Shown here piece after piece: positions 12,617-62,744 of a stretch of DNA of 62,744 nucleotides. The stretch comes from Candidatus Coprenecus sp. GTDB lineage: Bacteria > Bacteroidota > Bacteroidia > Bacteroidales > UBA932. Position numbers and translations under genes: made by a program. Below the pieces are notes generated by a model that had not been told where the DNA came from, searched no databases, and saw only the letters and a list, made by a program, of their open reading frames with translations. How positions within the stretch are numbered: position 1 is the first letter of the stretch; the number at the start of each line of letters is the position of its first letter. Location of the stretch: assembly GCA_045644725.1 (NCBI GenBank), contig JAZRHK010000136.1, forward strand, positions 1 to 62,744, given 5' to 3'.

Positions 12617-12625
12617 GATGTAGTA

Positions 12626-13189
12626 CTAAAATGTGTATACGATGGATATGTTGATATTGTTCGGCATCAGGAAAAGTTTCCGGGACTCTCCAACAAGTTT
12701 TCCGCATCGGGGGGAAATGTATGTTTTGTACTTTTTCCATCCGCCCCAGCCCCCAAGGCCGAACTCCATATTTATGCTTTTTGTCAGCATAAGGGAGTAG
12801 CCTGCCTGGATTCCAGCCCCGATAGCGTCACCTTCTTCTGTCAAGGGGCTCAGTATTCCTCCGTGGTTGTATCTTGAATATTGGATACCGAAGCTGTAAA
12901 ACCACCCGGAGTATACGTACCAGCTCCAATATCTCGCATTCAGTGAGCCTGTCAGCTGCTTGTTCTGGAAAGGTCGTGAAGATATGTTCCTGTCAATGGC
13001 ATTGTATCTCCCTTCCAGGTGAAGACTCCAGTGACGGTTGAGGCTCATCCCTATATTGATGTTAGGTGTGAGAAAATTGAGGTATCCTAAGGTGTTGGTC
13101 CCGATGGATACGCGGTTTTCGGCTCCGTGAAGGGTTGGGGTGGCGAAGACCAGTAGGAGGAAAATTAGGATAGTCTTTCTTGTCTGCAT
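12626..13189 (-). CDS. DUF3575-like outer-membrane beta-barrel protein
   Basis: ORF 13204 starts on TTG; the first ATG is at 13189 (MQTRKTIL...). Alternating aromatic and Gly strands, ending in ...ISIVYTF, typical of an OM beta-barrel. First gene of the pilus operon. Confidence 0.65.
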   Translation of the reverse strand: MQTRKTILIFLLLVFATPTLHGAENRVSIGTNTLGYLNFLTPNINIGMSLNRHWSLHLEGRYNAIDRNISSRPFQNKQLTGSLNARYWSWYVYSGWFYSFGIQYSRYNHGGILSPLTEEGDAIGAGIQAGYSLMLTKSINMEFGLGGWGGWKKYKTYISPRCGKLVGESRKLFLMPNNINISIVYTF

Positions 13190-13352
13190 CTTTTTTTTGT
13201 GCAAATGAAAGGGATTGTCATTTGAAGGAGAGACATATCCAACAACACTTTTGGAGTTGTTTTGGAAAAACTGAATTTTAAAAATGTGTATTTTTTTCAG
13301 AATTGTATATTATTGGCTAACTTTACGGGATAATTCTAAAAAATAATCGGTT

Positions 13353-38666: not shown

Positions 38667-39788
38667 TTATAGGCCAAGTTTCTTTCTTATATCTTTGGGA
38701 ATGCTGTTTTTGTGTACCAGGATACACATGGTTTTCCCTTTTACATAATTTTCAGACATCATGTGGTGCCCAGTTTTGGTGTATTCGTGACCCCATGAGT
38801 TTTTGGTGTTGTAGTATTTGACACCATTCTGGTCTTTGTAGAGTCCGGTGATATGCTCAAGGTGGTCGTCCACTGAGATAAATGTCTCATAGAACATCTG
38901 ACGCATTTCCTGTGTTACCTCCATCTCTGGGATTATCTCTTTTGACTCCTGGATCTGTTTTCTGGTAAGTTTGGTATCCTGTGGAAGGATGCTCAAATCT
39001 CTTGCCAGTACATAACCGGGTTCGCTGATATCTCCTGACCAAGCTACGGTATATCCGTTTAGAAGTGCGTGGTCGATAATCTCTATCATCTCTTCCAATG
39101 GGACATTGTACATGGTGCCATTGTCCCAGTTGTCAGGGAGTTCGAGCAGTACCTTCTCATAAAATGGGAGATGGGTGAAACTGGTGATATCTACATAGTC
39201 AGAGAAATCGAGGCCGAGATACTCCTTGAATGAAAGGGGAGTGTACTCTTTGCCATTGTATTCGAATGTCTCTGGAAGTTTGCCGAGATAGATATCAAAA
39301 AGCGCCTCCTGTAGTTCAATCGACTCAGGTGTCAGAACACCACGTTCTGTGGTTACTGAAGCCAATGCAGCCACATATGCGCTAAGTTCGCTATGGTCGT
39401 GTTTGGGAGAATCGTAGTTGATACCATCATAGGCTGACTGAGGTACAAGTCCATATTTGTCCATCATATTTATGGCCATGTGACCCAAACTGCCCTCTAC
39501 AATGCTCCCGTTCCCTTCTCTAAGGTAATTGTCAAAGATGCGGTGGCGGTAGTTGTGGCGGACAGTGAACATCTCGGAGAGGTCAAATTCGCCTTTGCCT
39601 GTCCTTAGGAGTTCGGACTCTATAAATGATGTGGTGCCGAAACACCAGCAGGTGCCAGTCTCTGCCTGGTCTTTGATAGGGGTGGAGGGATTCTCCACTA
39701 CCTTGGTAAATTTATAAACATTCTCTTGAGCCGAGAGGCTGCAAGAGAATGCTATAACTATACCCAAAAGAATACTTTTGATTTTCAT
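38667..39788 (-). CDS. secreted C1-family cysteine peptidase (aminopeptidase C / bleomycin-hydrolase-like), paralog 1
   Basis: 373 aa with a signal peptide. Catalytic Cys context QAETGTCWCFGTTSF, and His context DHLEHITG. Confidence 0.75.
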   Translation of the reverse strand: MKIKSILLGIVIAFSCSLSAQENVYKFTKVVENPSTPIKDQAETGTCWCFGTTSFIESELLRTGKGEFDLSEMFTVRHNYRHRIFDNYLREGNGSIVEGSLGHMAINMMDKYGLVPQSAYDGINYDSPKHDHSELSAYVAALASVTTERGVLTPESIELQEALFDIYLGKLPETFEYNGKEYTPLSFKEYLGLDFSDYVDITSFTHLPFYEKVLLELPDNWDNGTMYNVPLEEMIEIIDHALLNGYTVAWSGDISEPGYVLARDLSILPQDTKLTRKQIQESKEIIPEMEVTQEMRQMFYETFISVDDHLEHITGLYKDQNGVKYYNTKNSWGHEYTKTGHHMMSENYVKGKTMCILVHKNSIPKDIRKKLGL

Positions 39789-39800
39789 CTTGTTGTAAGA

Positions 39801-40922
39801 TTATAGACCAAGTTTCTTTCTGATGTCTTTAGGAATACCGTTTTTGTTTACAAGGATGCTGATGGTTTTTCCTTTTACGAAGTTTTCAGACATATAGTGG
39901 TAACCTGAGCCGTTGCGCTCTGTACCCCAAGAGTTTTTGGTGTTGTAGTATTTTACACCATTCTGGTCTTTATAGATACCGGTGATGTGCTCAAGGTGGT
40001 CATCCACTGTAAGGAATGTCTCGAAGAAATTCTGACGGATCTCCTGAGTCACTTCGATTTCAGGGATAATCTCTGTAGATTCAAGGATCTGTTTTCTGGT
40101 AAGTTTGGTGTCCTGAGGAACAATACAAAGTTCTCTCTCAAATACATAAGCTGCTTCGCTGCAGTCACCATCCCATACCAATGTGTAACCATTGGTGAGA
40201 GAGTGGTCGATAACGGCCATAAACTCATCAAGAGGGAGGTTGTACATAGTGCCGTGGTCCCAATTGTCAGGAACCTCTACTTGTACTTTCTCGTAGAATG
40301 GGTGGTGAGTAAAGCTTGTAATCTCTACATAATCTGAGAAATCAAGACCAAGATACTCTTTGAATGAAAGAGGGGTGTACTCTTTGCCATTGTACTCGAA
40401 AGTCTCAGGAAGCTTGCCAAGGTAGATGTCGAAAAGGGCCTCCTGAAGCTCTTTTGATTCAGGGGTAATCACTTTTCTCTCTGTGGTAACACTTGCCAAG
40501 GCTTTAACATACATGCTGAGCTCATTGTGGTTGTGTGTCTCAGAGTCGTAGTTGATGCCATCGTAAGCATATTCGGGTACAAGACCATGCTGGTTCATCA
40601 TATTGATGGCCATATGTGCCAAACTACCTGGGGTGATGTTTCCACGGCCCCTTCTGATGTAATTGTCATAGATACGTTTGTTGTAGTTATGACGAACTGT
40701 AAACATTTCAGATAGGTCAATCTCACCTTTACCGGTTCTGATAAGCTCAGACTCAATAAATGAAGTGGTACCATAGCACCAGCAAGTACCAGTGCTTGCC
40801 TGATTTTTGACAGGGGTAGCAGGGTTCTCCACTACTTTGGTGAATTTGTAAACGGTCTCCTGAGCGAAAAGTGAGCAGGTGGCCATCAACATTGCACCGA
40901 CAAGGATATTTTTAAGTTTCAT
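39801..40922 (-). CDS. secreted C1-family cysteine peptidase (PepC-like), paralog 2
   Basis: 373 aa, collinear with paralog 1. QASTGTCWCYGTTSF. Identical C-terminal IPKDIRKKLGL. Confidence 0.75.
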   Translation of the reverse strand: MKLKNILVGAMLMATCSLFAQETVYKFTKVVENPATPVKNQASTGTCWCYGTTSFIESELIRTGKGEIDLSEMFTVRHNYNKRIYDNYIRRGRGNITPGSLAHMAINMMNQHGLVPEYAYDGINYDSETHNHNELSMYVKALASVTTERKVITPESKELQEALFDIYLGKLPETFEYNGKEYTPLSFKEYLGLDFSDYVEITSFTHHPFYEKVQVEVPDNWDHGTMYNLPLDEFMAVIDHSLTNGYTLVWDGDCSEAAYVFERELCIVPQDTKLTRKQILESTEIIPEIEVTQEIRQNFFETFLTVDDHLEHITGIYKDQNGVKYYNTKNSWGTERNGSGYHYMSENFVKGKTISILVNKNGIPKDIRKKLGL

Positions 40923-40943
40923 ACTTGATAATGTTAATAAGTA

Positions 40944-42149
40944 TTAAAGACCGAGTTTAGCTCTGATTTCCTGAGGGATGGCGTTTTTGTTTACAAGAAC
41001 ATCCATAGTTTTGTATCTTACAAATGACTCAGATACGTACCATACACCCTTATATGTGCCAGATGCACCCCATGAGTTTTTGATGATGTAGTATTTTGTG
41101 CCGTTCTGATCTTTTGCAATACCGTACATATGCATACCGTGGTCATCGGTAGTCTGGTAGTTGTCATAACCAGCCTGACGCATCTCCTGAGTGATGTTCA
41201 ATTCAGGACCAGGGGTAGCAACAGCTTTGCTGGCGTTGCGTGGGTCAGCACCGATCCAGCGAGCCTCATCGCTGCCTGCAGCTTTTTTGATAGCCTCAGT
41301 GTCAGGAACTACACCGATACCGTCGCGGGTGAACCCTTTCTCACTTACGTCAGATGCCCATGCAAGGGTGTAACCATTGTTGAGAGCATTGTCGATGATA
41401 GCCATAAGGTCCTCAAGTGGAACATTGTAAGCTTTTTCCCAACGCCAGTTGTCTGGAACTTCCTGGATGGTCTCAGTATAGTAAGGGATATGTGTCCAAG
41501 AAACGATATCCACATAGTCATCAAGATTGATAGGGAGAGACTCCATATAAGTTTTAGGGGTGTACTCTTTGCCGTCAACTGTAAATTTCTCAGGTCTTGC
41601 ACCAAGATATGCATCAAGGATACCCTGGAAACCTTTTTTCCAAGCTGTAGAGAGCTTTCTGTTAGGGTTTCTGATTATAGCTTTTACGTATGCACCGGTT
41701 ACTGCGTCCATCTCACCGTGAACGTGGATGTCAGTGCCGTAGTTAAGGCCAACCATCTCTGAGTTTGGAACCATACCGTAGTGTTTCATTACGTACAGTG
41801 CATCACCGAATGAGCTGCCGGGTCCGAAATTAAGATTGCCGTGAAGTCTTACATATTTTTCAGCTTTGTCAGCATAAGCGTGAGAAACTACAAACATTTC
41901 TGAAAGGTCGATGTCCTGAGGACCGCCTGCTTTGATAATCTCTGATTCGAAGAATGAAAGGGCAGAGAAGCACCAGCAAGTACCTGTACTGCTCTGGTTT
42001 TTAATTGATGTTACAGGATTTTCAACCACGGTTGTAAATACATAACCTTGAGGTTCTTCCTGTTTAGGAGCTTTTTTCTTTTGTGCAAAAGAATTGACCG
42101 AAAGCATACATACAGATGCGACGATCAGTGCGAAAGATTTTAGGTTCAT
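40944..42149 (-). CDS. secreted C1-family cysteine peptidase (PepC-like), paralog 3 (more divergent)
   Basis: 401 aa with a signal peptide. QSSTGTCWCFSALSF. DDHGMHMYG His region. Confidence 0.75.
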   Translation of the reverse strand: MNLKSFALIVASVCMLSVNSFAQKKKAPKQEEPQGYVFTTVVENPVTSIKNQSSTGTCWCFSALSFFESEIIKAGGPQDIDLSEMFVVSHAYADKAEKYVRLHGNLNFGPGSSFGDALYVMKHYGMVPNSEMVGLNYGTDIHVHGEMDAVTGAYVKAIIRNPNRKLSTAWKKGFQGILDAYLGARPEKFTVDGKEYTPKTYMESLPINLDDYVDIVSWTHIPYYTETIQEVPDNWRWEKAYNVPLEDLMAIIDNALNNGYTLAWASDVSEKGFTRDGIGVVPDTEAIKKAAGSDEARWIGADPRNASKAVATPGPELNITQEMRQAGYDNYQTTDDHGMHMYGIAKDQNGTKYYIIKNSWGASGTYKGVWYVSESFVRYKTMDVLVNKNAIPQEIRAKLGL

Positions 42150-46145: not shown

Positions 46146-47033
46146 ATGGGGAAGCTAAGTAAAACATATTGTGTGGCAGGACATCAGTTCTCTTTCGTTA
46201 TGGCGGAGACTTCGCCCCTGTGGAAATATGTTTTTCGTGCATACACCCCTTTTGAATCCATAGAATCCGAAGAGGACCTTTTTTCATTGGAGGTGACAGA
46301 TGTTCTGGAGGTTGTGGATCTGGAACAGATATATGTAGATGAAAATCCGGAACCCGGTTTTGTGAAAATAGCAGTCTACAGGTATCATGGCGGGTATTAC
46401 ATGGAGTTTACCCAGCATGACAGTGTTGAGGTCAATGGAAGAATGACTATGGATGGATATGGAAAGGTGAGACTCACCCTTATTGGTGACGAAATGAACC
46501 AATGGATGACCTTTACAAATATAGCTCAGGTAGTCTACTTTATGCGTACTGCTACATTGGAAACAGTGATGGCCCACGCCTCAGCTGTCCATTATCAGGG
46601 CAAATCATATCTGTTTTTAGGAAAGAGCGGTACAGGAAAAAGTACCCATAGCAGAATGTGGCTTCAAGGGGTAGAGGGATCTGAGCTTATGAACGATGAC
46701 CACCCTATAGTGAGGATTTCCGAGGATGGTACCCCTATTGCATATGGTTCGCCGTGGAGCGGGAAGACCCATTGCTATCACAATATGGCAGCACCCGTAG
46801 GTGCAATCGTGAGAATCCGCCAGGAAAAGGAGAATGCGATCCGCAAGCTCCGCCCTGTTGAGGCATATGGCTCTGTGATGGTCAGTTGCTCGGGATTCCC
46901 TATAGAAGAGAGAATCACAGAGGGGAAGAGCAATACACTTCAAAAGATAGTAAAAGGTACCTCCTGCTGGGAACTTGGCTGCCTGCCCAACGTGGATGCT
47001 GCCATTGTATGCAGGGATGCCGTTTGTCAGTAG
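46146..47033 (+). CDS. P-loop HPr-kinase-like (HprK C-terminal domain-like) protein
   Basis: 295 aa. HASAVHYQGKSYLFLGKSGTGKSTHSRMW resembles the HprK/lasso-kinase 'HA.AV...G.a.l..G.SGaGKST' core, followed by NDDHP. Starts 1 nt after the transporter stop. Confidence 0.55.
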   Translation: MGKLSKTYCVAGHQFSFVMAETSPLWKYVFRAYTPFESIESEEDLFSLEVTDVLEVVDLEQIYVDENPEPGFVKIAVYRYHGGYYMEFTQHDSVEVNGRMTMDGYGKVRLTLIGDEMNQWMTFTNIAQVVYFMRTATLETVMAHASAVHYQGKSYLFLGKSGTGKSTHSRMWLQGVEGSELMNDDHPIVRISEDGTPIAYGSPWSGKTHCYHNMAAPVGAIVRIRQEKENAIRKLRPVEAYGSVMVSCSGFPIEERITEGKSNTLQKIVKGTSCWELGCLPNVDAAIVCRDAVCQ

Positions 47034-47036
47034 CTT

Positions 47037-47492
47037 ATGGGAGAGAAACTTACTATACCGAATTCCATTTTTTTTGCTGAGGTGGAGAGCCACATATCGG
47101 GGGGGAGGAGTGTGGTAATTCCTGTGAAAGGTTACAGCATGCTCCCTTTCATCCGGGATGGCAGGGACAGTGTAGAGCTTGTAGGATGCAAGGAATTGAA
47201 AGTGGGAGATATTGCTTTGGCCAAATTGGGCAATGGCAATTTTGTGCTCCACAGAGTGTGGGAGACAGATGGTGGGAAAGTGGTTCTTATGGGAGATGGC
47301 AATATCGCAGGAAAGGAGGTTTGCAGACACTCTGATATAATTGGTGTAGCCTCCAGGATTTTTAGAGGCAAGAGGGTGATAGACTGCACCTCTGCCGCTT
47401 ATTTGAGAAATGTTAAAATATGGAGGGGGCTCCTCCCTATAAGAAGATATATTCTGGCGGTTTACCGCCGTTTAATAAAATTAGGGCTATGA
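47037..47492 (+). CDS. soluble S24/S26-type serine peptidase-like protein
   Basis: 151 aa. VKGYSMLPFIRDGRDSVELV matches the G-x-S-M-x-P nucleophile motif. No N-terminal TM or signal peptide. 3-nt gap from the kinase-like gene and 4-nt overlap with the next gene. Confidence 0.55.
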   Translation: MGEKLTIPNSIFFAEVESHISGGRSVVIPVKGYSMLPFIRDGRDSVELVGCKELKVGDIALAKLGNGNFVLHRVWETDGGKVVLMGDGNIAGKEVCRHSDIIGVASRIFRGKRVIDCTSAAYLRNVKIWRGLLPIRRYILAVYRRLIKLGL

Positions 47493-47755
47493 GGATTAAA
47501 AAAGGTTTCAAATTAAGGGAAATTATGGGCGAATTTGCCGTTATAGGTGAAGGGCTTGAGCAGGTCAATTTCAATAAGATAATATCTCTCAACAGCACAG
47601 CTGCATACATATGGAGAGAGATCGAGGGGAAGGACTTTGATGCAGAGATGGTGGCAGAGCTGCTTCTTGACAAGTACGAAGTGAGTCGTGAGACAGCATT
47701 GTCAGATGCTACAGTGCTGGTGCGCAAATTGGTGGAAAACGGATTGACCGAATAG
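47489..47755 (+). CDS. PqqD-family protein (RiPP recognition element-like)
   Basis: ATG at 47489 within ORF 47420..47755, giving 88 aa. ...LNSTAAYIWREIEGKDFDAEMVAELLLDKYEVSRETALSDATVLVRKLVENGL is the classic PqqD pattern. Confidence 0.7.
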   Translation: MRIKKGFKLREIMGEFAVIGEGLEQVNFNKIISLNSTAAYIWREIEGKDFDAEMVAELLLDKYEVSRETALSDATVLVRKLVENGLTE

Positions 47756-47760
47756 GCAAA

Positions 47761-49401
47761 ATGGTAATAAAGAGGATTATAAAGATTCTTCCGAAGGAGT
47801 TTTACCGGACGGGTGGCTGGATAGTGGCTTCGGTTCCGGTAAGGGCCCTTTTGAATCTTGTGGGTGTGGCAGCCCTCCTTCCGGTGCTTCAGGTGGTGCT
47901 GGATGATAATCCTACCCGTTTCAGCCCTGTGACCGTATGTTTGGGAGTTCTGGCGGTCATTCTTCTCAAGAATATCCTCAATATTGCCCTGGGGGCATAT
48001 CAGAACAGGTTCCTCCTCAAGATATACAGATACTTTTCCACTGCACTTTTCTCTAATCTGTATCACAAGGGCCTTCTGTATATAAAAGGGCGCAACTCTG
48101 CTGAGATCTCGCACGAGATCAACGGGGTATGCTACTCTTTCTCATTGGGTGTGCTGTCTCCAATTCTGAACATGGCAGGTGAGAGCCTTTTGCTCCTGCT
48201 GATATATATTGGTCTCATTTTCTACTCCCCTGTTGCTTCAGTGCTTGTCCCTGTATGCTTTATTCCGGTGATACTCCTCTATGTCCATATGGTAAAAAAC
48301 AGGGTGCAGAGTTATGGGAAAAAGGAGAATGAGGCGAGAAGGAAGATGTGGAAAACTGTAGTGGAGACCTTCCGGGGTTATGCAGAAGTGGAGGTAAACG
48401 GTGCATTTCCGTCGATTGAAAAGCAATTTGATGAAAATTTGCAGGATATATCGCTGCAACGTGAGAAGATGACTGTAGTCCAGCAGCTCCCAATTACTCT
48501 GATAGAGCTCTCTGTGGTAGGGGCTATGGTTATACTGGTGCTTCTTAGCGGAGCTTTGGAGGGGGACAACCTGAGTGTCATGGTGGGTGTATTTGCCATT
48601 GCTGCCATGAGAATTCTCCCTGCAGTGAGGACTTTGACAAACGGGTGGACATCGGTGAAAAATGGGATGTACAGCCTGGATATCATAGAGCAGGGCCTCT
48701 CTGAAGAGGGCGTGGACAAGAAGATGGATGAACAGTTCAGTTTCTCCTGTGGACTTGAGGTAAGAAATCTGTCTTTTGCATTCCCGGATGGAGAACATAA
48801 GGTATTTGATGATTTCTCTATGTATGTGAGAAAAGGGGAGAAAGTGGGAATCAGAGGCCATTCCGGTGCCGGCAAGACCACCCTTTTCAATTTACTGCTG
48901 GGGTTTTACAGACCGGACAAAGGTGGCATCTATATTGACGGCAAAGAACTGACAGTGGAAAATCGTGCAGGATGGCTCAAATATGCAGGATATGTACAGC
49001 AGGATGTATTTATTCTTGATGCTTCATTGGCTGAGAATATTGCACTTGGTGTAAAAAGCGAGTTGATAGACAGGAACAGGGTCATGAGGGTGATCAAGGA
49101 GGTATCTCTTGCATCTTATCTGGAACAGCTTCCAGATGGTATCGATACTAGAATAGGTGAGATGGGGGCAAAGCTCTCCGGTGGACAGAAGCAGCGTGTA
49201 GGTATTGCCAGAGCACTTTATAAAGGGGCAGATATTTTATTCTTTGACGAGGCTACATCATCACTGGATAGTGCTACAGAGTCAGAAATCAACGAATCTA
49301 TAATGGAACTCTCCTCCCATAGAAAAGACCTGACTATTATTGCAATAGCTCACAGGGAGTCTTCTTTGGCTTTCTGTGACAGGATTATAGAGATTTTCTA
49401 G
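47761..49401 (+). CDS. ABC exporter, fused permease/ATPase (no C39 peptidase domain)
   Basis: 546 aa. Six-TM N-terminal half. Walker A GHSGAGKTT, signature LSGGQKQRVGIARA and Walker B ILFFDEATSSLD. Confidence 0.9.
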   Translation: MVIKRIIKILPKEFYRTGGWIVASVPVRALLNLVGVAALLPVLQVVLDDNPTRFSPVTVCLGVLAVILLKNILNIALGAYQNRFLLKIYRYFSTALFSNLYHKGLLYIKGRNSAEISHEINGVCYSFSLGVLSPILNMAGESLLLLLIYIGLIFYSPVASVLVPVCFIPVILLYVHMVKNRVQSYGKKENEARRKMWKTVVETFRGYAEVEVNGAFPSIEKQFDENLQDISLQREKMTVVQQLPITLIELSVVGAMVILVLLSGALEGDNLSVMVGVFAIAAMRILPAVRTLTNGWTSVKNGMYSLDIIEQGLSEEGVDKKMDEQFSFSCGLEVRNLSFAFPDGEHKVFDDFSMYVRKGEKVGIRGHSGAGKTTLFNLLLGFYRPDKGGIYIDGKELTVENRAGWLKYAGYVQQDVFILDASLAENIALGVKSELIDRNRVMRVIKEVSLASYLEQLPDGIDTRIGEMGAKLSGGQKQRVGIARALYKGADILFFDEATSSLDSATESEINESIMELSSHRKDLTIIAIAHRESSLAFCDRIIEIF

Positions 49402-49410
49402 AACTTGGGA

Positions 49411-49441
49411 TTTGTTTCTTGCTGGAAAATGTTTATATTTG
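49411..49441 (+). promoter_or_regulatory. Bacteroidetes promoter (TTTG -33, 19-nt spacer, TAtaTTTG -7) for the small ORF / lipoprotein pair
   Basis: TTTG at 49411-49414 and TATATTTG at 49434-49441, 30 nt upstream of the ATG at 49471. Confidence 0.5.
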
Positions 49442-49470
49442 CATTAATTTGAATGTAGATAGGAATTATT

Positions 49471-49602
49471 ATGTCAGAGAAAATGAAATCCCCATACATC
49501 TCTCCTGAAATGGAGATTATCGATCTTGTAACAGAATCAGGCTTTTGCTCAAGCAATCCAGGTGGAAATACTCCTGGTCTGGACAATAATACATGGAATT
49601 GA
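49471..49602 (+). CDS. unannotated 43-codon ORF, leader-peptide-like (family member 1)
   Basis: Hand translation gives MSEKMKSPYISPEMEIIDLVTESGFCSSNPGGNTPGLDNNTWN*. It is below the ORF-track size cut-off. It has its own promoter and is homologous at protein level to the small ORFs at 55073-55189 and 56979-57098. An alternative start is ATG at 49483. Confidence 0.55.
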   Translation: MSEKMKSPYISPEMEIIDLVTESGFCSSNPGGNTPGLDNNTWN

Positions 49603-49619: not shown

Positions 49620-51497
49620 ATGAAAATAGGGGTTAAACTCACTTTTTTTGCGGTATTCTTTTTTGTTATTCACTCATGTGCCAGTTTAGAGAATACATGT
49701 GGTGAGAATATGGGGCTGTATCCTGCGGAGATAGGGGTAAGCATGTCATCCGGTGATAAGACCAAAGTGTATCTTGGTGATTCTGACAATGACAGCAATA
49801 CAACCCCTATATATTGGAGCGACGATGAAAGTGATCAGATTAAAGTAAAGGTTGATGGTGTGGACTACATTTTTCAAAAGGTAGGAAATACATCCAATTC
49901 AAAAAATGCAAAGTTCAGATGCGAATTGGCACCGGCGGTAGAGGCTGGAAAGACCTATACAGCCACATATAGCAGTGACGGGTTCAATTCAATCGGGTAT
50001 TACCAAAGTGGAACTATAAGCTCTCTTAAGGATCATATTGATCTTTCAGCAACATATACAGCTAAGGAGGGTGATACATGGAATGATGTGGTATTCAATT
50101 TTCAGATGGAGCGTGCTATAGTGAAAATCACCATAAGAAGTGATATTGTGAATGATGTTGGAGTTGGTGTTGATCTTATGGAGGATGGAAAGGGCCTTGT
50201 CACCTCCACCAGTACTGTTGAACTCTCTCAGGAAGGTGTTGCCGAGTTCTACTTTGTCTTGGAACCCAGAGAGTACAATGAAATTACCATGGAGGTTACT
50301 TTGTATATATGTGGAGATCCTCTAAATTTCCAAACCAGGGTGATTAGATATGAGATGAGTGATATCACTATTAGGAGGAACAATATGTACTATGTAGAGA
50401 AGCAGCTTCTGTCAGATACGAGTATAGAGGAAAATTTTAATATCGTCAAGCTCTCAGGAGAGGACAACAGTTCTACTGCAAATTCATATATATTGAATCC
50501 TGTAACCGACAATCCCGTACTTGGTAAAGATAACACTATCTACAGAATATACGCCAAATACAAAGGGAACAGCTCTTCCGTATCTGATGAGATCGGTTCA
50601 CGTATCAAAAAGGTAAAAGTGTTGTGGGAGTCAGATGGAACAAATTCACCTCTTGCTCAAGGGGCAATTATAACCCGTGCGATATGGCATAATGACTTCA
50701 TCTACTTTGACATTAATGGATCAGGTGCTGAAGGAAATGCACTTATAGGTGCATTTGATGGTGATGGCAATATAGTGTGGTCATGGCATATCTGGGTTAC
50801 AGATACCCCTCAAGAGCATCAATATGAAGATAATGACGGTATAGTCTTCGGTACTTATATGGACAGGAACTTGGGTGCATTAAGAGCTGATGGTACCGCA
50901 GTGGAAAATAGTGGCCTTTTCTATCAGTGGGGGAGAAAAGATCCGTTCCTTCCCGGTAATGTCTCATGCGCAATGATGGAAGGCGCTTCATGGAATAAAG
51001 TGAGAGTGGATAACGCCACCGGATCAATAGCTTATGCAACAGAGCACCCTATGACTTATTTGTACAGTACAGCATCTCCATTCACCTGGATTTATCTCTC
51101 TGCAGGAGAATCTGTGCAAAGTTCTATGTGGGGGGCATCCAAGACTGTATACGACCCTTGCCCCTACGGATGGAAAGTGACAGAAAGTAATCTTGGAAAC
51201 AATATAGATGTCTCTTCCGGTAGGGGTTCATTCAATTCCACAACAGGCAATTATGAACTCAAGTACAAAAAAGATAAGGGAGATGTGGCATATTTCCCAA
51301 CTTCAGGGCGATATTCGTATTCTACAGGTGAATGGATACAGGCTGGACTGGCCGGTTTCTATTGGTCTTCAACAGTTTCCCGTGACAGCGAGATAAGACC
51401 TGCATGCAGTTTCTATTTTGATGATCAGGGTAACGTGAATCCTGCGAGAACATATTTCTTCGCGGAAGGTGCTTCCGTAAGGTGTAAAAAAATGTAG
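49620..51497 (+). CDS. surface lipoprotein with fimbrillin-like N-terminal part and C-terminal FISUMP-like (Fibrobacter succinogenes major paralogous) domain
   Basis: ATG at 49620 (MKIGVKLTFFAVFFFVIHSC, lipobox). C-terminal motifs MDRNLGA, LFYQWGRKDPF, DPCPYGWKV, GFYWSST and GASVRCKK. Confidence 0.55.
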   Translation: MKIGVKLTFFAVFFFVIHSCASLENTCGENMGLYPAEIGVSMSSGDKTKVYLGDSDNDSNTTPIYWSDDESDQIKVKVDGVDYIFQKVGNTSNSKNAKFRCELAPAVEAGKTYTATYSSDGFNSIGYYQSGTISSLKDHIDLSATYTAKEGDTWNDVVFNFQMERAIVKITIRSDIVNDVGVGVDLMEDGKGLVTSTSTVELSQEGVAEFYFVLEPREYNEITMEVTLYICGDPLNFQTRVIRYEMSDITIRRNNMYYVEKQLLSDTSIEENFNIVKLSGEDNSSTANSYILNPVTDNPVLGKDNTIYRIYAKYKGNSSSVSDEIGSRIKKVKVLWESDGTNSPLAQGAIITRAIWHNDFIYFDINGSGAEGNALIGAFDGDGNIVWSWHIWVTDTPQEHQYEDNDGIVFGTYMDRNLGALRADGTAVENSGLFYQWGRKDPFLPGNVSCAMMEGASWNKVRVDNATGSIAYATEHPMTYLYSTASPFTWIYLSAGESVQSSMWGASKTVYDPCPYGWKVTESNLGNNIDVSSGRGSFNSTTGNYELKYKKDKGDVAYFPTSGRYSYSTGEWIQAGLAGFYWSSTVSRDSEIRPACSFYFDDQGNVNPARTYFFAEGASVRCKKM

Positions 51498-54037: not shown

Positions 54038-55042
54038 TTAAATATGTGAATCACTCTCTGTTACAGTCCATCCTGTACTAGGCAGTCTGTATGCTTTGCC
54101 CACAACTATGTTTTTATCTGTAACAGGTACAAGCAATTCGTATTTGTAATATTTTGAGGATGATTTGTATCTTACGTGGAATGCCCAACTTGAAGTTGGT
54201 TTTTTAATCATAAGTTCATTTTTGAAAGCAAAACAATAGGAAATGTCCTCCCCATTGACCACACATCCGGCATCGCCTGTAGCAGTACTCCTGTCAAAAA
54301 CAAATCCATGTGTCTCAGTAGGATTGAATGATAATGCATCTTTTTTAAGTGCGACCACTGCCCAATTCGCTTCAGTGGTGCTGTTCACAATGGATATAGT
54401 TGACTCTTCCATATATGCTTCATCGTGGCCTGAGGGCATACCAGTCAACTCTCTTGGAACAGAGATCTGGAAAAGTCTTGGATCAATATTAAGAGTCACA
54501 GAACCGAGAGAGACAACGCCATCAGTAACTGTATATGTGCCGGTACCTTTCATAAATTCACCTCCGTTATAATTAAGTAGTGGATATGTACCTTCTTTCT
54601 CAAACCAGTTGCCAACATTGTTTGTACCTTTTATAAAGTAAGTTTCGTCCTTCGTGCCATGAGTAAGCATTTCTCCTCTGTGGTGTATGGCCATCCACTC
54701 ACCACCTTCCCCTAAGTTAGATGTAATTGTATTATTGAGCACAATCTCAGACCATCCTGTTATAGATGAATAGACGGTGTAAGCAGCTTTTATGTATGGA
54801 GTTCCACCTAAAGTTCCTCCGTACCAATTTGCTCCAGTTGGTTTGAATACAAACACCACCCAATCCCCATTGGCCCATTCGGATTTTACAGCTTTAGTGA
54901 GATTCCCGCTGAAATCTGGTCTGTCTGATATTGTAAATACAGCTTTTGTACCCTCATTCTCCATTGGGGAGTCAATCTTTTGGCACCCTGATGCAGTTAC
55001 CACCAATGCGATAACTGCCATAATAAGATTTCTCATTTTCAT
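54038..55042 (-). CDS. fimbrillin-like lipoprotein, paralog A (downstream of small ORF 2)
   Basis: 334 aa. Lipobox VVTASGC. ...TKAVKSEWANGDWVVFVF... N-terminal pattern. Clear paralog of 55982..56947. Confidence 0.55.
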   Translation of the reverse strand: MKMRNLIMAVIALVVTASGCQKIDSPMENEGTKAVFTISDRPDFSGNLTKAVKSEWANGDWVVFVFKPTGANWYGGTLGGTPYIKAAYTVYSSITGWSEIVLNNTITSNLGEGGEWMAIHHRGEMLTHGTKDETYFIKGTNNVGNWFEKEGTYPLLNYNGGEFMKGTGTYTVTDGVVSLGSVTLNIDPRLFQISVPRELTGMPSGHDEAYMEESTISIVNSTTEANWAVVALKKDALSFNPTETHGFVFDRSTATGDAGCVVNGEDISYCFAFKNELMIKKPTSSWAFHVRYKSSSKYYKYELLVPVTDKNIVVGKAYRLPSTGWTVTESDSHI

Positions 55043-55072
55043 AATTGTCCTTTTTATCAGTTATACATTTGG

Positions 55073-55189
55073 TTACCATTGTTCTTCTCCATCAAATCCG
55101 TCATAATTTGGTGATGCGGCAAAACCCTGTTCCACCGACATTTCGACTACCTCCAGCAGAGGAGCTTCGTAAAGTTTCAGTTTTTCCAT
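55073..55189 (-). CDS. unannotated 38-codon ORF, leader-peptide-like (family member 2)
   Basis: Hand translation gives MEKLKLYEAPLLEVVEMSVEQGFAASPNYDGFDGEEQW*. It ends 30 nt upstream of the lipoprotein ATG at 55042. Confidence 0.55.
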   Translation of the reverse strand: MEKLKLYEAPLLEVVEMSVEQGFAASPNYDGFDGEEQW

Positions 55190-55232
55190 AGGCTTATATT
55201 TTATGTTTGTATGTAACTACTGACTTTTTTTT

Positions 55233-55264
55233 CAAATATACCTTTTTTTTGGTTAATCGTCAAA
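55233..55264 (-). promoter_or_regulatory. Bacteroidetes promoter on minus strand (TTTG, 20-nt spacer, TAtaTTTG) for small ORF 2 / lipoprotein A
   Basis: Plus-strand CAAATATA at 55233-55240 and CAAA at 55261-55264. The -7 box lies 44 nt upstream of the ATG at 55189. Confidence 0.5.
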
Positions 55265-55312
55265 CAAGTACGAATTTTGAAGTGCATTATTGAAATATTT
55301 CAGAAAAAATAT

Positions 55313-55320
55313 TATATTTG
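55313..55320 (+). promoter_or_regulatory. Bacteroidetes -7 box (TAtaTTTG) upstream of ferritin
   Basis: Exact TAnnTTTG match 38 nt upstream of the ATG at 55358. Confidence 0.45.
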
Positions 55321-55357
55321 CGATAGGAAATAATTATAAATAAAGAATAAACAAATT

Positions 55358-55981: not shown

Positions 55982-56947
55982 TTATTTGGTCCATCCAGTG
56001 AGTGGTAGTCGATATGATTTTCCAATTTTGATAGAATGGTCATTTCTGTCAATGTTGATTGATGCGAAACTTGCAGCATTTTCTCCATTTGTAATTGAGA
56101 ATACTAAATCTGTAAATGTTGCATCTTCTGGTTTGCTGAATACAAAGCAGTAAGACACATCTTCACCGTTTAATACCCCCTCAGCAAAACCAGATTTTGT
56201 TGAATTGTCAAGCCAAAAGCCATTGGTGGTTTGTGGAGCCAAATAAAGCACCCCTCTTTTAAGGGCCACAACTCTATATAGATCTTCCGGTGATGAATTT
56301 TGTTTTATGGATAATCTAAATTTCAGGTTTTTGAACCAGGTAGAATATGCGTTATTAAATATAGGGTTGCTACTCCCATCTGTAATGTCTTTGCTCACTG
56401 AAAATTGGAATAAAGAACTATACAGCTGTAAGTCTATTGTGGATAGTGTAATTGTAGTACCGTCCGATGTGTAAGTTCCTTTATGGGACATAAATTCTCC
56501 TCCTTTATATCCATCAAGCTGGTATCCGTTATAGGTGTTAGGTGCAGTACCTACTTCAGAGGGAATAGCTTTAGCTGTTACCTTCCCTCTATGGTGGATG
56601 GCCAGATAAGTGCCACTTTCGCCCAAGTCAGTTATATTTTGAGAAGTGAGAGTTATATCTGACCACACAGATGATGTATAGGTTGTCGTGAATTTATAAA
56701 GGGCATCTTCCATAGGCCCATACCAATTTGTAGCCCCTGCAGGTTTGAAAATTATCATGACCGAATCCCCCTCTGCCCAAGCTGTTTTGACCGCTTTTGT
56801 CTGGCCTGGGTCGCCAAGTACAGGTTTGTCTGCGATGGTGAATTTTACTTTTACTGTGCTATTTGAGTCGGCTCTGTCGATTTTTTGACATCCTGAAGCA
56901 GTTATAACCAATGCGATAACTGCCATAATGATATTTCTAAATTTCAT
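55982..56947 (-). CDS. fimbrillin-like lipoprotein, paralog B (downstream of small ORF 3)
   Basis: 321 aa. Lipobox VITASGC. TKAVKTAWAEGDSVMIIF. Collinear with paralog A through to the C-terminal ...YRLP.TGWT. Confidence 0.55.
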   Translation of the reverse strand: MKFRNIIMAVIALVITASGCQKIDRADSNSTVKVKFTIADKPVLGDPGQTKAVKTAWAEGDSVMIIFKPAGATNWYGPMEDALYKFTTTYTSSVWSDITLTSQNITDLGESGTYLAIHHRGKVTAKAIPSEVGTAPNTYNGYQLDGYKGGEFMSHKGTYTSDGTTITLSTIDLQLYSSLFQFSVSKDITDGSSNPIFNNAYSTWFKNLKFRLSIKQNSSPEDLYRVVALKRGVLYLAPQTTNGFWLDNSTKSGFAEGVLNGEDVSYCFVFSKPEDATFTDLVFSITNGENAASFASINIDRNDHSIKIGKSYRLPLTGWTK

Positions 56948-56978
56948 AATTGTCCTTTTTTATCAGTTATACATTTGG

Positions 56979-57098
56979 TTACCATTGTTCTTCCCCTTCA
57001 AATCCGTCATAATTTGGCGATGCGGCAAAACCCTGTTCCACCGACATTTCGACTACCTCTAGCAGAGGAGCTTCGTAGAATTGATTTTCCTTCTTCAT
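56979..57098 (-). CDS. unannotated 39-codon ORF, leader-peptide-like (family member 3)
   Basis: Hand translation gives MKKENQFYEAPLLEVVEMSVEQGFAASPNYDGFEGEEQW*. It ends 31 nt upstream of the lipoprotein ATG at 56947. Confidence 0.55.
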   Translation of the reverse strand: MKKENQFYEAPLLEVVEMSVEQGFAASPNYDGFEGEEQW

Positions 57099-57148
57099 AG
57101 TGTTGGCTTTTAAATGTTTGTTTGCAATTTACCTAAAATTTTCCTTGG

Positions 57149-57880
57149 ATGCAAACAAAGTACTATCTTAGAGCAAATTTTGAACTTATGGCACTATTCA
57201 GATTGAGTGAGAAATGTGTTAAGCCAATGGTATTTTCTGCTACCGGGCTTTTTATCGCATTGGTCGCAATTTTCTTTTTGCCATTGGCATTGCCCTATGA
57301 ACTGGCATACCCTGTGGCTGCCCTTTTCGTAGTATCGCTATGGCTGACACCGTGGGAAGTCTCATTGGCATTGCTCTTCTCAGCAATGGGGGATGTGGCA
57401 GGGAGTGCCGGAGAGATTCTTTGGCAGATGGGGCTTTTCGGAGTGGCGCATCTGTGGTACATCCTCTTTTTCGTGAGAAGATATTTTGCAAAAGTTGATA
57501 AAAGGGATGGGAAGGTGAGCAGAAGGACGGTGGTCCATCTGAGCATATTCTCCCTCTGCGTCCTGGCAGTAATGGCTGTGGCGTTTGCGCTTGTGGTACC
57601 GGCAATGCCTGCTGGTGTGGTGAGAATTGCTGGAGGTGCCTATGCAGTGGTGATATGTGGAATGTTCCTGATGGCATTGCTCCAGAGGAGTTCGCTGTAT
57701 GCATTGGGCGCTGCCCTGTTTGTGATATCGGACCTTGTTCTGGCATGGAACCTTTTTGTGGAGCCAGTGGAGAATGCAGGTGCAATGATAATGGTGACCT
57801 ATTATCTGGCACAATGGCTCATTTTCATCCGTGCCACTCCGTATGAGGTGCCCCATCCGGTACGGCTGTTGAGGTTTTGA
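57149..57880 (+). CDS. YhhN-like (lysoplasmalogenase family) membrane protein
   Basis: 243 aa, about 7 TM, with the FSAMGDVAG motif. The true start may be a downstream Met (57188 or 57227). Confidence 0.45.
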   Translation: MQTKYYLRANFELMALFRLSEKCVKPMVFSATGLFIALVAIFFLPLALPYELAYPVAALFVVSLWLTPWEVSLALLFSAMGDVAGSAGEILWQMGLFGVAHLWYILFFVRRYFAKVDKRDGKVSRRTVVHLSIFSLCVLAVMAVAFALVVPAMPAGVVRIAGGAYAVVICGMFLMALLQRSSLYALGAALFVISDLVLAWNLFVEPVENAGAMIMVTYYLAQWLIFIRATPYEVPHPVRLLRF

Positions 57881-60774: not shown

Positions 60775-60838
60775 GTTGCGAGTTATAAGTGGACTGATTT
60801 ATATAATGGTGACTGGATAGTGTAAAAAGAATGTAAAC

Positions 60839-60960
60839 TGGCATCGGCGTCGGGTGTGTCTTCGAACGGGGTAATGGATCAGCATCATTGATAATGTGAC
60901 TGGCCCTTTGGCAGCGACTCCGAGGAAGATGGTAATGATGAGGACTATCAGCCTTTTCAT
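60839..60960 (-). pseudogene. internally deleted, frameshifted remnant of a paralog of the 61898..62521 outer-membrane protein gene
   Basis: 60876-60960 matches the signal-peptide coding end (62437-62521; MKRLIVLIITIFLG...). 60842-60875 matches 61927-61959 near the 3' end of the intact gene. About 477 nt is missing and the junction is out of frame. Confidence 0.65.
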
Positions 60961-61112
60961 AAATGTGTATCAGTTTTTTTTATTTGAATTTGATGAGCTG
61001 TGACGTTTTTCGCGGTATGTATGTCACAGTCATCCCGCTTTTTGCCATTTAACCTCCATTTTAGCCACTACTGTGACATTTTTCTTTCAAAAAACTGCAC
61101 AGTGATACTTGG
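60961..61112 (-). repeat. conserved about 150-nt 5' leader, copy A (paralogous to 62522-62672)
   Basis: Near-identical by eye to copy B. Contains interlocking inverted repeats CTGTGAC (60998-61004), ATGTCACAGT (61021-61030), ACTGTGACAT (61070-61079) and CACAGTG (61098-61104). Confidence 0.7.
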
Positions 61113-61121
61113 TAAGCCGCA

Positions 61122-61198
61122 GGCATTCCCCCTGCGAGGATTTGGCCGCTGGCATTCCCCTTCGGGGATTTGGCCTCCGGCATTCCCCTTCGGGGATT
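61122..61198. repeat. tandem 28-29-nt hairpin repeat array A (about 2.7 units)
   Basis: GGCATTCCCCCTGCGAGGATTTGGCCGCT / GGCATTCCCCTTCGGGGATTTGGCCTCC / GGCATTCCCCTTCGGGGATT. Confidence 0.8.
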
Positions 61199-61897: not shown

Positions 61898-62521
61898 TTA
61901 CAATCTCCACCTGAGGGTGATCATGGCATCGGCGTCGGGTGTGCCTTCGAAGGGGTAATCCAAGGTGCCAATAATGCCCAATGCGAGCTTATCAGTTATC
62001 TTTACGAAGAGTCTGGTCTGGGAGTAAAACTCTGCTGGGACATTTGTCAAATGGGTTTTCCACAGGTCGTTGAATGTCTCAATCTGGAAATGTTTCCATT
62101 CCCATCCCCCGACAATGGAGAGTTGTCCGCCAAATCCACCGCGTTGCCTCCACATGGCAAGGGGCTCAATTGCCAGATATCCGTGCTGACTATAGAAACA
62201 GTAGGCTCCGCCAAGATATGCGGTGCTCTCAAAAAATGAGAGTCCGGCTGCTGCTCTGTATTCAGCGTGGAGAAAAACGGGGAGATCCCACCATCTCTGT
62301 TCCCAAAAGAATTGTCCGTATGCCCCGAATGAATGGCCTCTCCAGTCACCCATTTCGATATATCCGTAACCGATATGATTTTCTCCGATACCTGTGGATT
62401 CAGATGCAATCACCCCATTGTCTCCAAATGGGGAATACATCAGCATCATCGATGATGTGACTTGCCCTTTGGCAGTGAGTCCGAGGAAGATGGTAATGAT
62501 GAGGACAATCAGCCTTTTCAT
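61898..62521 (-). CDS. putative outer-membrane beta-barrel protein (Tsx/DUF5020-like size and composition)
   Basis: 207 aa. Signal peptide MKRLIVLIITIFLGLTAKGQ. Aromatic/Gly-rich alternating strands. Family assignment is uncertain. Confidence 0.5.
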   Translation of the reverse strand: MKRLIVLIITIFLGLTAKGQVTSSMMLMYSPFGDNGVIASESTGIGENHIGYGYIEMGDWRGHSFGAYGQFFWEQRWWDLPVFLHAEYRAAAGLSFFESTAYLGGAYCFYSQHGYLAIEPLAMWRQRGGFGGQLSIVGGWEWKHFQIETFNDLWKTHLTNVPAEFYSQTRLFVKITDKLALGIIGTLDYPFEGTPDADAMITLRWRL

Positions 62522-62672
62522 AAATGTGTATCAGTTTTTTTATTTGAATTTGATGAGCTGTGACGTTTTTCGCGGTATTTATGTCACAGTCATCCCGCTT
62601 TTTGCCATTTAACCCCCATTTTAGCCACCACTGTGACATTCTTCTTTCAAAAAAGTGCACAGTGATACTTGG
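62522..62672 (-). repeat. conserved about 150-nt 5' leader, copy B (upstream of the intact OMP gene)
   Basis: Same sequence family and the same CTGTGAC / GTCACAG inverted-repeat set as 60961-61112. Confidence 0.7.
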
Positions 62673-62673
62673 T

Positions 62674-62744
62674 GGGCCTCCGGCATTCCCTTCGGGGATT
62701 GGGCCTCCGGCATTCCCTTAGGGGATTTGGCCTCCGGCATTCCC
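62674..62744. repeat. tandem 27-nt hairpin repeat array B (truncated by window end)
   Basis: GGGCCTCC / GGCATTCCCTTCGGGGATTGGGCCTCC / GGCATTCCCTTAGGGGATTTGGCCTCC / GGCATTCCC... Confidence 0.8.

Follow-up and report, generated by a model that had tools for sequence, protein, structure and literature searches.

Kinase-containing lasso-peptide gene clusters (A, B1, B2, C, D, K, N), such as those of paeninodin (pade), Bradymonas (bsf) and pseudomycoidin (psm), combine a discrete PqqD-type RRE (B1), an HprK-like kinase (K), often an NTP_transf-type nucleotidyltransferase (N) and a half-size ABC exporter (D) with an asparagine-synthetase-like cyclase (C) and a transglutaminase-like leader peptidase (B2). 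In these systems, B1 binding requires a Y(-17)xxP(-14)xL(-12) motif in the precursor leader, and the kinase acts on the linear, leader-bearing peptide with help from the RRE (PMC10368454, PMC8498205). Related pairings of an HprK-like protein with a PqqD-family protein are found in the SynChlorMet cassette (NCBIfam TIGR04248 ScmD, TIGR04249 ScmC; Pfam PF27840 ScmC), which also includes the radical-SAM/SPASM proteins ScmE/ScmF, and in the uncharacterized HPr-rel-A system (NCBIfam TIGR04352 HprK_rel_A, TIGR04353 PqqD_rel_X, TIGR04355 HprK_rel_B). Here, we examined a locus in Candidatus Coprenecus sp. that resembles these systems in part, using a window consisting of the whole 62,744-nucleotide stretch of contig JAZRHK010000136.1 (assembly GCA_045644725.1).

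A conserved kinase-like, peptidase, PqqD and exporter cassette

The original prediction described four tightly packed genes for an HprK-like protein, a soluble S24/S26 peptidase, a PqqD/RRE protein and an ABC exporter next to a leader-like small open reading frame (ORF), and proposed that they may phosphorylate and/or trim and export small peptides. We confirmed this arrangement (Table 1). The four genes are separated by a 3-nt gap, a 4-nt overlap and a 5-nt gap, and a 69-nt spacer precedes the small ORF. An AAE-family transporter gene ends at 46144, 1 nt before the first gene, and had been suggested as possibly co-transcribed; however, it lies upstream only in the closest relatives and is not part of the system.

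Table 1 Features of the cassette and of the peptide–lipoprotein modules in the window.
Feature	Coordinates	Strand	Length	Description
ScmC-like/HPr-kinase-like P-loop protein	46146..47033	+	295 aa	Candidate peptide kinase
S26B-like (Sec11/SipW-type) protease	47037..47492	+	151 aa	Soluble, signal-peptidase-like
PqqD-family protein	47489..47755	+	88 aa	Peptide-binding protein (RRE)
ABC exporter	47761..49401	+	546 aa	Half-size (TMD+NBD), no C39 domain
Promoter consensus 1	49411..49441	+		TTTG-N19-TAnnTTTG, 30 nt upstream of the ATG of peptide 1
Precursor-like peptide 1	49471..49602	+	43 aa	MSEKMKSPYISPEMEIIDLVTESGFCSSNPGGNTPGLDNNTWN
Lipoprotein 1	49620..51497	+		Lipobox ...VIHSC; partner of peptide 1
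Lipoprotein 2	54038..55042	-		Lipobox ...TASGC; starts 31 nt after the stop of peptide 2
Precursor-like peptide 2	55073..55189	-	38 aa	MEKLKLYEAPLLEVVEMSVEQGFAASPNYDGFDGEEQW
Promoter consensus 2	55233..55264	-		Bacteroidetes-type, upstream of peptide 2
Lipoprotein 3	55982..56947	-		Lipobox ...TASGC; starts 32 nt after the stop of peptide 3
Precursor-like peptide 3	56979..57098	-	39 aa	MKKENQFYEAPLLEVVEMSVEQGFAASPNYDGFEGEEQW

Profile and fold analyses agree with these assignments. The PqqD-family protein scores well above the Pfam gathering threshold for PF05402 (E 8.9e-15; 55.2 bits against 23.4), its best NCBIfam hit is the lasso PqqD chaperone (below cut-off), and it is 88 aa long in nearly all related loci. 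The P-loop protein carries the Pfam tag PF27840 (ScmC), although sequence-profile hits to HprK models and to the Protein Data Bank (PDB) are not significant. Its AF2 model (pLDDT 94, pTM 0.90) has a predicted PEPCK/HprK fold, with Foldseek PDB hits to ATP-PEPCKs and to HprK/P (1knx, 1kkl and 1jb1) at probability 1.0. Residues H144, G159, G162, G164, K165, S166, D184 and D185 are invariant in 64 sequences and match the signature of the lasso-precursor kinase BsfK, H148-G163-G166-G168-K169-S170-D186-D187 (PMC10368454).

The peptidase hits in curated libraries are likewise below their cut-offs (Pfam Peptidase_S24, 19.5 bits against 23.3; NCBIfam sigpep_I_arch, E 4e-8, 33.1 against 51.85), and NCBI names its homologs 'S24/S26 family peptidase'. 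Nevertheless, the catalytic boxes of the Sec11/SipW type (GxS34MxP, H72-R73 and G86-D87-G88-N89) are invariant in 75 of 75 homologs. Because the protein scores below these cut-offs and has no hydrophobic N-terminal segment that could serve as a membrane anchor, we classify it as S26B-like rather than as a signal peptidase. The exporter contains ABC_membrane and ABC_tran domains, with best NCBIfam hits that are PglK/MsbA-like and below cut-offs. Only its NBD aligns to the exporter of the related locus L001 (31% identity, 39% coverage), whereas other cassette exporters are at least 42% identical over their full length, indicating that the exporter in the window is a non-orthologous replacement.

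The kinase–peptidase–PqqD core is conserved in about 80 Bacteroidales species. Of 61 complete species-level loci, found in differing housekeeping contexts, 58 have PqqD, 56 have the peptidase, 47 have an ABC exporter and 20 have an NTP_transf_5 nucleotidyltransferase. The latter is often part of the ancestral cassette but is missing here. Because the cassette contains only the accessory genes of kinase-type lasso clusters, and because NTP_transf_5 and the original exporter have been lost in this lineage, we considered whether it is a nonfunctional, decaying remnant of a lasso cluster. We regard this as very unlikely: the kinase-like protein forms more than 7,500 90%-identity clusters with about 60 invariant residues, including the whole catalytic signature; the catalytic boxes of the peptidase are invariant; the genes are tightly packed or overlapping in many lineages; and an exporter was re-acquired in the same position.

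A family of small peptides encoded before lipoprotein genes

The original prediction noted three small ORFs with a conserved Ser after GF, and all three are present. The small ORF next to the cassette is a real gene, conserved in three related species (loci L006, L007 and L010) with more synonymous (16–18) than non-synonymous (10–12) codon changes. It belongs to an unannotated family of 2,038 representative clusters, with a YxxPx[LIM]E leader, a conserved Ser and a variable acidic tail. Y, P and E are 100% conserved, position 5 is L/I/M/V, and the Ser, about 19–20 residues after the Tyr, is 77–90% conserved.

Each of the three small ORFs sits immediately upstream of a lipoprotein gene, a feature that had not been noted, and almost every family member is followed at 0–50 nt by such a gene. 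Lipoprotein 1 has a signal peptide plus Cys, lectin-like C-terminal motifs by eye and only a weak SlpA_N Pfam hit, and its gene is gained or lost together with the peptide gene; lipoproteins 2 and 3 have no Pfam hit. In modules 2 and 3, the peptide, spacer and signal peptide form one near-identical block. The window contains six matches to the Bacteroidetes-type promoter consensus against 1.84 expected, consistent with the modules having their own promoters.

This near-obligate pairing has no precedent in RiPP pathways and is not explained by the peptide-maturation model proposed below. It raises the possibility that the small ORFs are not substrates but upstream or co-translated partners of the lipoprotein genes, for example a regulatory leader peptide or a small subunit or escort, with the cassette serving lipoprotein biogenesis or surface display in some other way. 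We consider this unlikely. Amino acid conservation across the family, with synonymous changes exceeding non-synonymous ones, argues for a functional peptide rather than a regulatory uORF, and one cassette locus, L044, has four peptide genes with no lipoprotein. Moreover, a cytoplasmic RRE, kinase, soluble peptidase and exporter follow the logic of peptide maturation, and lipoproteins, which are generally exported by Sec/LspA, would not be expected to need them.

Genomic linkage and a proposed pathway

To determine whether the cassette and the peptide family are linked, we examined the flanks of the cassette loci. Of 17 peptide–lipoprotein modules, 12 end within 1.3 kb of the cassette (P 8e-8; seven of nine lineages, P 2e-5), and all 12 are co-directional with it. 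One module sits inside the cassette (locus L034), and the tandem array of peptide genes in L044 lies directly upstream of PqqD. Starting instead from an independent peptide (P0185) recovered the cassette immediately upstream, in the same layout as in the window. Two of three such independent look-ups, however, showed no cassette in the sequence available: none within 10 kb in one case and, in the other, a contig that ends beside the peptide on one side. In addition, only 14 of 80 species loci show a family member within the fetched flanks, so most precursors would have to be encoded elsewhere, and L008 and L009 keep the cassette without the adjacent module. These observations leave room for an alternative in which the cassette matures some other substrate and the modules are merely frequent neighbors, because both sit in variable, surface-protein-rich regions of the chromosome. 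We find this alternative doubtful, given the strongly non-random, co-directional adjacency, the arrangements in L034 and L044, the presence in the peptide leader of the motif that lasso-type PqqD proteins recognize, and the absence of any other conserved small ORF seen next to the cassette.

Overall, our analyses support the original prediction, and no characterized pathway or curated family among those we searched matches the cassette, nor did we find a published description. With moderate confidence, and on the basis of sequence and predicted structure rather than biochemistry, we propose that the four genes are a lineage-specific form of a widespread Bacteroidales cassette that matures and exports small ribosomal peptides with the accessory toolkit of kinase-containing lasso clusters. 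In this model, the ~40-aa peptides are made in the cytoplasm from their own promoters, together with a lipoprotein, and the PqqD protein binds the YxxPx[LIM]E/alternating hydrophobic-Glu strand and presents the peptide to the kinase-like enzyme. This enzyme would phosphorylate a Ser, for which the best candidate is the conserved Ser after GF, and where NTP_transf_5 is present the phosphate would be decorated further. The S26B-like peptidase would then separate the conserved N-terminal part from the variable acidic tail, near the small-residue motif [AS]-S, although in peptides 2 and 3 the residue after the conserved Ser is Pro, which canonical type I signal peptidases are not expected to tolerate at +1, making the cleavage site uncertain. 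The ABC half-transporter would export the product to the periplasm, where it probably acts together with the co-encoded lipoprotein. A more speculative possibility, which we advance only tentatively, is that this is a new, cyclase-less RiPP class whose linear products are dedicated partners (ligand, cap, activator or address tag) of the surface lipoproteins encoded right behind each peptide gene. Such a peptide–lipoprotein pairing would have no known counterpart and would be present in thousands of gut and rumen Bacteroidales genomes.

Comparison with known systems

The locus has the genomically linked elements of a generic RiPP pathway: a short precursor with a conserved recognition region and a variable region, an RRE, a tailoring enzyme, a peptidase and an exporter. 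A comparison with anti-phage defense models (PADLOC) gave only generic ABC-ATPase similarity for the exporter and nothing for the other four proteins. Like the SynChlorMet cassette, the locus pairs an ScmC-type HprK-like protein with a PqqD-family protein, but NCBIfam ScmC and ScmD scores are far below cut-off (13.9 against 125 bits and 20.8 against 100 bits, respectively), and no radical-SAM gene is in any inspected context. Hits to all three HPr-rel-A models are weak and far below cut-offs; there is no second kinase, and the peptidase, exporter and peptide family are different. The peptidase shares the Ser-His catalytic arrangement and the SM.P, HR and GDGN boxes of SipW/Sec11-type (S26B) dedicated signal peptidases, but it has no membrane anchor and is presumably cytoplasmic, its substrates in our model lack a Sec signal peptide, and it is encoded with an RRE and a kinase.

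The kinase-containing lasso clusters share with this locus a discrete PqqD-type RRE, an HprK-like kinase with the H...GxxGxGKS...DD signature, often an N gene, a half-size ABC exporter and a leader with the Y-x-x-P-x-L motif, although the NCBIfam lasso-leader and lasso-PqqD models do not reach their cut-offs here. No asparagine-synthetase-like cyclase or B2 protease was found in the cassette, among the window neighbors scanned or in the Pfam-annotated contexts L001–L005 and L090–L101, a search that did not extend to the rest of the genome. Counted from the conserved Gly, peptide 1 (GFCSSNPGG...) has no Asp/Glu at core positions 7–9, whereas peptides 2 and 3 (GFAASPNYD...) have Asp at position 9, and the family has no conserved acidic residue at a fixed distance. 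Characterized lasso kinases act on a C-terminal Ser (PMC8498205), whereas most family members end in W, F or E, and only the short forms in L044 end at the conserved Ser. Compared with the kinase-containing lasso clusters, the locus carries an S26B-like serine peptidase in place of the cyclase and B2 protease, its peptide genes are paired with lipoprotein genes, and its host clade is Bacteroidales.

Gene arrangement and predicted products

To test the original prediction of an orphan RiPP-like cassette, we first mapped the ORFs of the window, and this analysis reproduced every predicted coordinate and spacing. The second and third genes overlap by 4 nt, and the fourth gene is separated from a 43-codon ORF by a 69-nt spacer that holds an exact Bacteroidetes promoter consensus, TTTG-N19-TAnnTTTG. 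The window contains six matches to this consensus, against 1.84 expected. The original prediction also described three small peptides with a conserved Ser after GF. A local BLAST of the 43-aa peptide against the window found no paralog, but an intergenic small-ORF listing and a profile recovered all three peptides, which share Y-x-x-P-x-h-E-h-h-[ED]-h..E.GF..S and a Trp at or next to the C-terminus. Antisense ORFs on the minus strand were rejected, because they lie inside conserved plus-strand genes and have no support.

Coordinates of the features described in the window and in related loci (L handles denote the loci retrieved in our searches)
Feature	Sequence	Coordinates	Strand	Length
P-loop (kinase-like) protein gene	window	46146-47033		295 aa
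S26B-like peptidase gene	window	47037-47492		151 aa
PqqD gene	window	47489-47755		88 aa
ABC half-transporter gene	window	47761-49401		546 aa
Bacteroidetes promoter consensus	window	49411-49441		
Peptide 1	window	49471-49602	+	43 codons
Peptide 2	window	55073-55189	-	
Peptide 3	window	56979-57098	-	
Antisense ORF (example)	window	46617-47330	-	
Regions with the block shared by modules 2 and 3	window	54900-55330 and 56810-57240	-	~200 nt (block)
Three tandem paralogous genes with signal peptides	window	38667-42149	-	373, 373 and 401 aa
Duplicated sequence near the window's end	window	60799-61052 and 61898-62612		
Repeated 'MPEAKSPKG'-type small ORFs	window	61061-61183 and 62621-62740		
ABC exporter gene	L001	10744-12369		
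Tandem array of peptide genes	L044	7781-8257		
Peptide P0221 and its surroundings	L096/L097	8134-13949		
Second small ORF and the gene it precedes	L093-L095	about 12540-14650	-	38-82 aa as called; ~604-611 aa
Start of a capsule locus	L001/L002	12956-16903		

The assignment of PqqD is solid (Pfam, 55 bits against a threshold of 23), and its best NCBIfam neighbors are lasso-type PqqD chaperones, below cut-off. The P-loop protein obtained only E~0.01 hits to HprK_rel_A, HprK_rel_B, ScmC and HPr kinase in the local libraries, although it and its homologs carry the newer precomputed Pfam tag PF27840 'ScmC', and a profile search of this kinase-like family against PDB sequences gave only P-loop noise. 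We therefore turned to fold comparison. A 64-sequence alignment yielded an AlphaFold model with pLDDT 94 and pTM 0.90, whose best PDB matches are ATP-dependent PEP carboxykinases and HPr kinase/phosphatases (1knx, 1kkl and 1jb1), all at probability 1.0, which places the predicted structure in the PEPCK/HprK P-loop kinase fold. The invariant residues H144, G159, G162, G164, K165, S166, D184 and D185 reproduce, in order and almost in spacing, the signature H148-G163-G166-G168-K169-S170-D186-D187 reported for lasso-precursor kinases (PMC10368454).

The 151-aa protein scores just below the curated S24 and archaeal signal-peptidase cut-offs. Across 75 homologs, however, GxS34MxP37, H72-R73 and G86-D87-G88-N89 are invariant, and these are the catalytic boxes of the Sec11/SipW (S26B, Ser-His) signal peptidases. 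The protein has no N-terminal hydrophobic anchor, so its original description as soluble is right, and NCBI's pipeline names some homologs 'S24/S26 family peptidase'. The 546-aa protein is a TMD+NBD half-transporter without a C39 domain.

The neighboring genes are housekeeping (ClpB, YbaK-like tRNA editing, patatin, PTS EIIC, ferritin and YhhN), and none of the neighbors scanned is a cyclase, radical-SAM, YcaO, Lan or ATP-grasp gene. No PADLOC defense model matched, and we rejected a known defense system on this basis. Elsewhere in the window, the 401-aa member of three tandem paralogs has a papain-like 'QSSTGTCWCFSALS' active-site motif, so these genes, read from the translation only, appear to encode C1-type (aminopeptidase C/bleomycin-hydrolase-like) peptidases. 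Near the window's end, the same N-terminal coding stretch (MKRLIVLIITIFLG...) and the same antisense small ORFs (MVMMRTISLFINVYQFF...) occur twice.

Conservation of the cassette in Bacteroidales

The kinase-like protein has more than 7,500 clusters at 90% identity. A scan of one genome per species returned 127 relatives, and the 80 that we kept are all uncultured gut or rumen Bacteroidales: Rikenellaceae including Ca. Coprenecus (the closest, 74-76% identity), Ca. Cryptobacteroides, Egerieisoma and Muribaculaceae. In the 61 loci with complete flanks, the kinase-like gene is accompanied by PqqD in 58, the S26B-like peptidase in 56, an ABC half-transporter in 47 and NTP_transf_5 (PF14907) in 20. 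Two main gene orders occur, namely ScmC-S26-PqqD-(NTP5)-ABC and PqqD-NTP5-ABC-ScmC-S26. The flanking genes differ between lineages, so only these genes travel together. In the lineage of L001 and L002, for example, the cassette is followed by a NusG/UpxY-like gene, a WecA-type glycosyltransferase and a Wza-type polysaccharide exporter, that is, the start of a capsule locus; because the other loci inspected have different neighbors, this is probably coincidental.

The four-gene form of the window is the commonest architecture (27 of 61 loci). Its exporter, however, is not the exporter of the other cassettes: only the ATPase domain aligns (31% identity, 39% coverage), whereas the others are at least 42% identical to each other over full length. 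In the clade comprising the window and loci L006-L010, the NTP_transf_5 gene that usually precedes the exporter is also absent, which indicates a non-orthologous replacement by a different half-transporter in the same slot. The AAE-family transporter (Asp-Al_Ex plus TrkA_C) ends 1 nt before the first gene of the cassette, and the original prediction allowed that it might be co-transcribed with the cassette. It is upstream only in the five closest loci, and at a distance in a further locus (L056), so it is not part of the system.

A peptide family paired with lipoprotein genes

A profile built from the peptides of the window and iterated on the loci found 23 members in 14 species loci plus the window. 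The protein database added 151 more, all unnamed and without Pfam domains, and an exhaustive search of 1.84 billion representatives found 2,038 clusters at E<=0.001, all 32-87 aa. A metagenome scan with the peptide alignment returned only 4 confirmed loci, because the query is too short. No Pfam or NCBIfam model recognizes any member, including the lasso-leader models. In the profile from 118 unique sequences, numbered from the Tyr, Y0, P3 and E6 are conserved at 100% and position 5 is L/I/M/V; E9 (89%), E11 (82%) and E13 (99%) alternate with I/V/L and are followed by A-[IV]-[LMC]-x-[AS]-S (Ser 77%) and then by a 9-26-residue tail rich in Gly, Glu, Asp and Ser, ending in W, F or 'FGE'. Y-x-x-P-x-L is exactly the motif at positions -17 to -12 of lasso leaders that the PqqD-type B1 protein needs for binding, and in the Bsf system that RRE is also needed for efficient phosphorylation by the HprK-like kinase (PMC10368454).

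Almost every family member is followed at 0-50 nt by a lipoprotein gene of 320-1250 aa with a lipobox Cys. The lipoproteins share only a weakly similar N-terminal region and have different C-terminal parts: one has BspA-type LRRs, and lipoprotein 1 of the window has lectin-like C-terminal motifs by eye. An AF2 model of lipoprotein 3 built from a two-sequence alignment was unusable (pLDDT 47). In L008 and L009, the peptide gene and the lipoprotein gene are missing together, as one clean indel. The tight translational spacing suggests that the peptide and lipoprotein are made together and act together. Modules 2 and 3 of the window point the same way, as they share a block at 88-98% identity that runs from the YEAP codons of the peptide through the spacer and the lipoprotein signal peptide to the lipobox, whereas the promoter regions and the mature lipoprotein bodies are only 30-55% identical. 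This pattern looks like gene conversion, or a conserved 5' cassette placed in front of diversifying lipoprotein bodies.

We next asked whether these modules cluster at the cassette. Of 17 modules, 12 end within 1.3 kb of it, against 13% expected (P=8e-8); collapsed by lineage, this is 7 of 9 (P=2e-5). All 12 adjacent modules are co-directional. In one locus (L034), a module lies between the peptidase and PqqD genes. In another (L044), four tandem peptide genes with no lipoprotein lie directly upstream of PqqD, one full-length and three near-identical short ones that are separated by conserved ~45-nt spacers and stop exactly at the conserved Ser; no ABC gene was detected in that cassette. Starting from an independent peptide (P0185), we found the full five-gene cassette immediately upstream of peptide plus lipoprotein, the same layout as the window.

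The link nevertheless appears facultative. Another independent peptide (P0221), which precedes a 926-aa protein with LTD and Flg_new domains and is flanked by two Endonuclease_1 genes, has no cassette within 10 kb, in a genomic context that looks different (ABC sugar-uptake genes), and a third (P0239) lies at a contig end. In L093-L095, a second small ORF, convergent with the first peptide-lipoprotein module, precedes another gene and is probably another module. The pattern fits several dispersed precursor genes served by one cassette. In the window itself, all three modules lie within 8 kb downstream of the cassette, and none lies in the 46 kb upstream.

A proposed maturation route and comparison with known systems

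In characterized clusters, the HprK-like kinase phosphorylates the linear, leader-bearing precursor on a Ser, and the nucleotidyltransferase adds hexose to that phosphate in pseudomycoidin (PMC8498205, PMC10368454). By analogy, we propose that the RRE binds the YxxPx[LIM]E strand, that the kinase-like enzyme phosphorylates a Ser, that NTP_transf_5, where present, decorates the phosphate, that the S26B-like enzyme cuts near the small-residue motif and that the ABC transporter exports the product. The conserved Ser is a better phosphorylation candidate than the tail, because 18 of 131 tails contain no Ser or Thr and the short forms in L044 end at this Ser. It is unresolved which fragment is the product: the tail is variable, as RiPP cores usually are, but the short forms have no tail at all. 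The Pro after the Ser in peptides 2 and 3 would probably be unfavorable for a canonical signal peptidase.

Overall, our analyses confirm the predicted gene arrangement and support its interpretation as a RiPP-like cassette, although the enzymology is inferred, and they correct it in that an NTP_transf_5 component has been lost in this lineage, the exporter is a non-orthologous replacement, the peptides are paired with lipoproteins and the AAE transporter is not involved. RRE-dependent peptide maturation is itself known. If our reading holds, the cassette defines a maturation route for ribosomal peptides that reuses the lasso accessory enzymes without making a lasso, and it would introduce a soluble Sec11/SipW-type enzyme as a peptide-processing protease, which we have not seen described. 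It would also give a first functional handle on a large, unannotated family of ~40-residue peptides (about 2,000 clusters at 50% identity) and on the many uncharacterized surface lipoproteins encoded with them. Both occur in Rikenellaceae, Muribaculaceae and other uncultured gut and rumen Bacteroidales, where surface lipoproteins drive nutrient capture and host or phage interactions.

A 2023 survey of RiPP clusters in Bacteroidales describes GG-leader/PCAT/radical-SAM clusters and nothing like this cassette (PMC10352776), and our other literature searches found no description, although absence from the literature we could search is not proof of absence. The cassette shares the ScmC/PqqD pair with Haft's SynChlorMet and HPr-rel-A cassettes, but it lacks their other components and scores far below their cut-offs. 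As inferred here, the system works most like the kinase-type lasso clusters, but it fails the two class-defining features, the cyclase (C) and the B2 protease, neither of which is encoded in the regions inspected, and it is therefore not a lasso cluster on present evidence.
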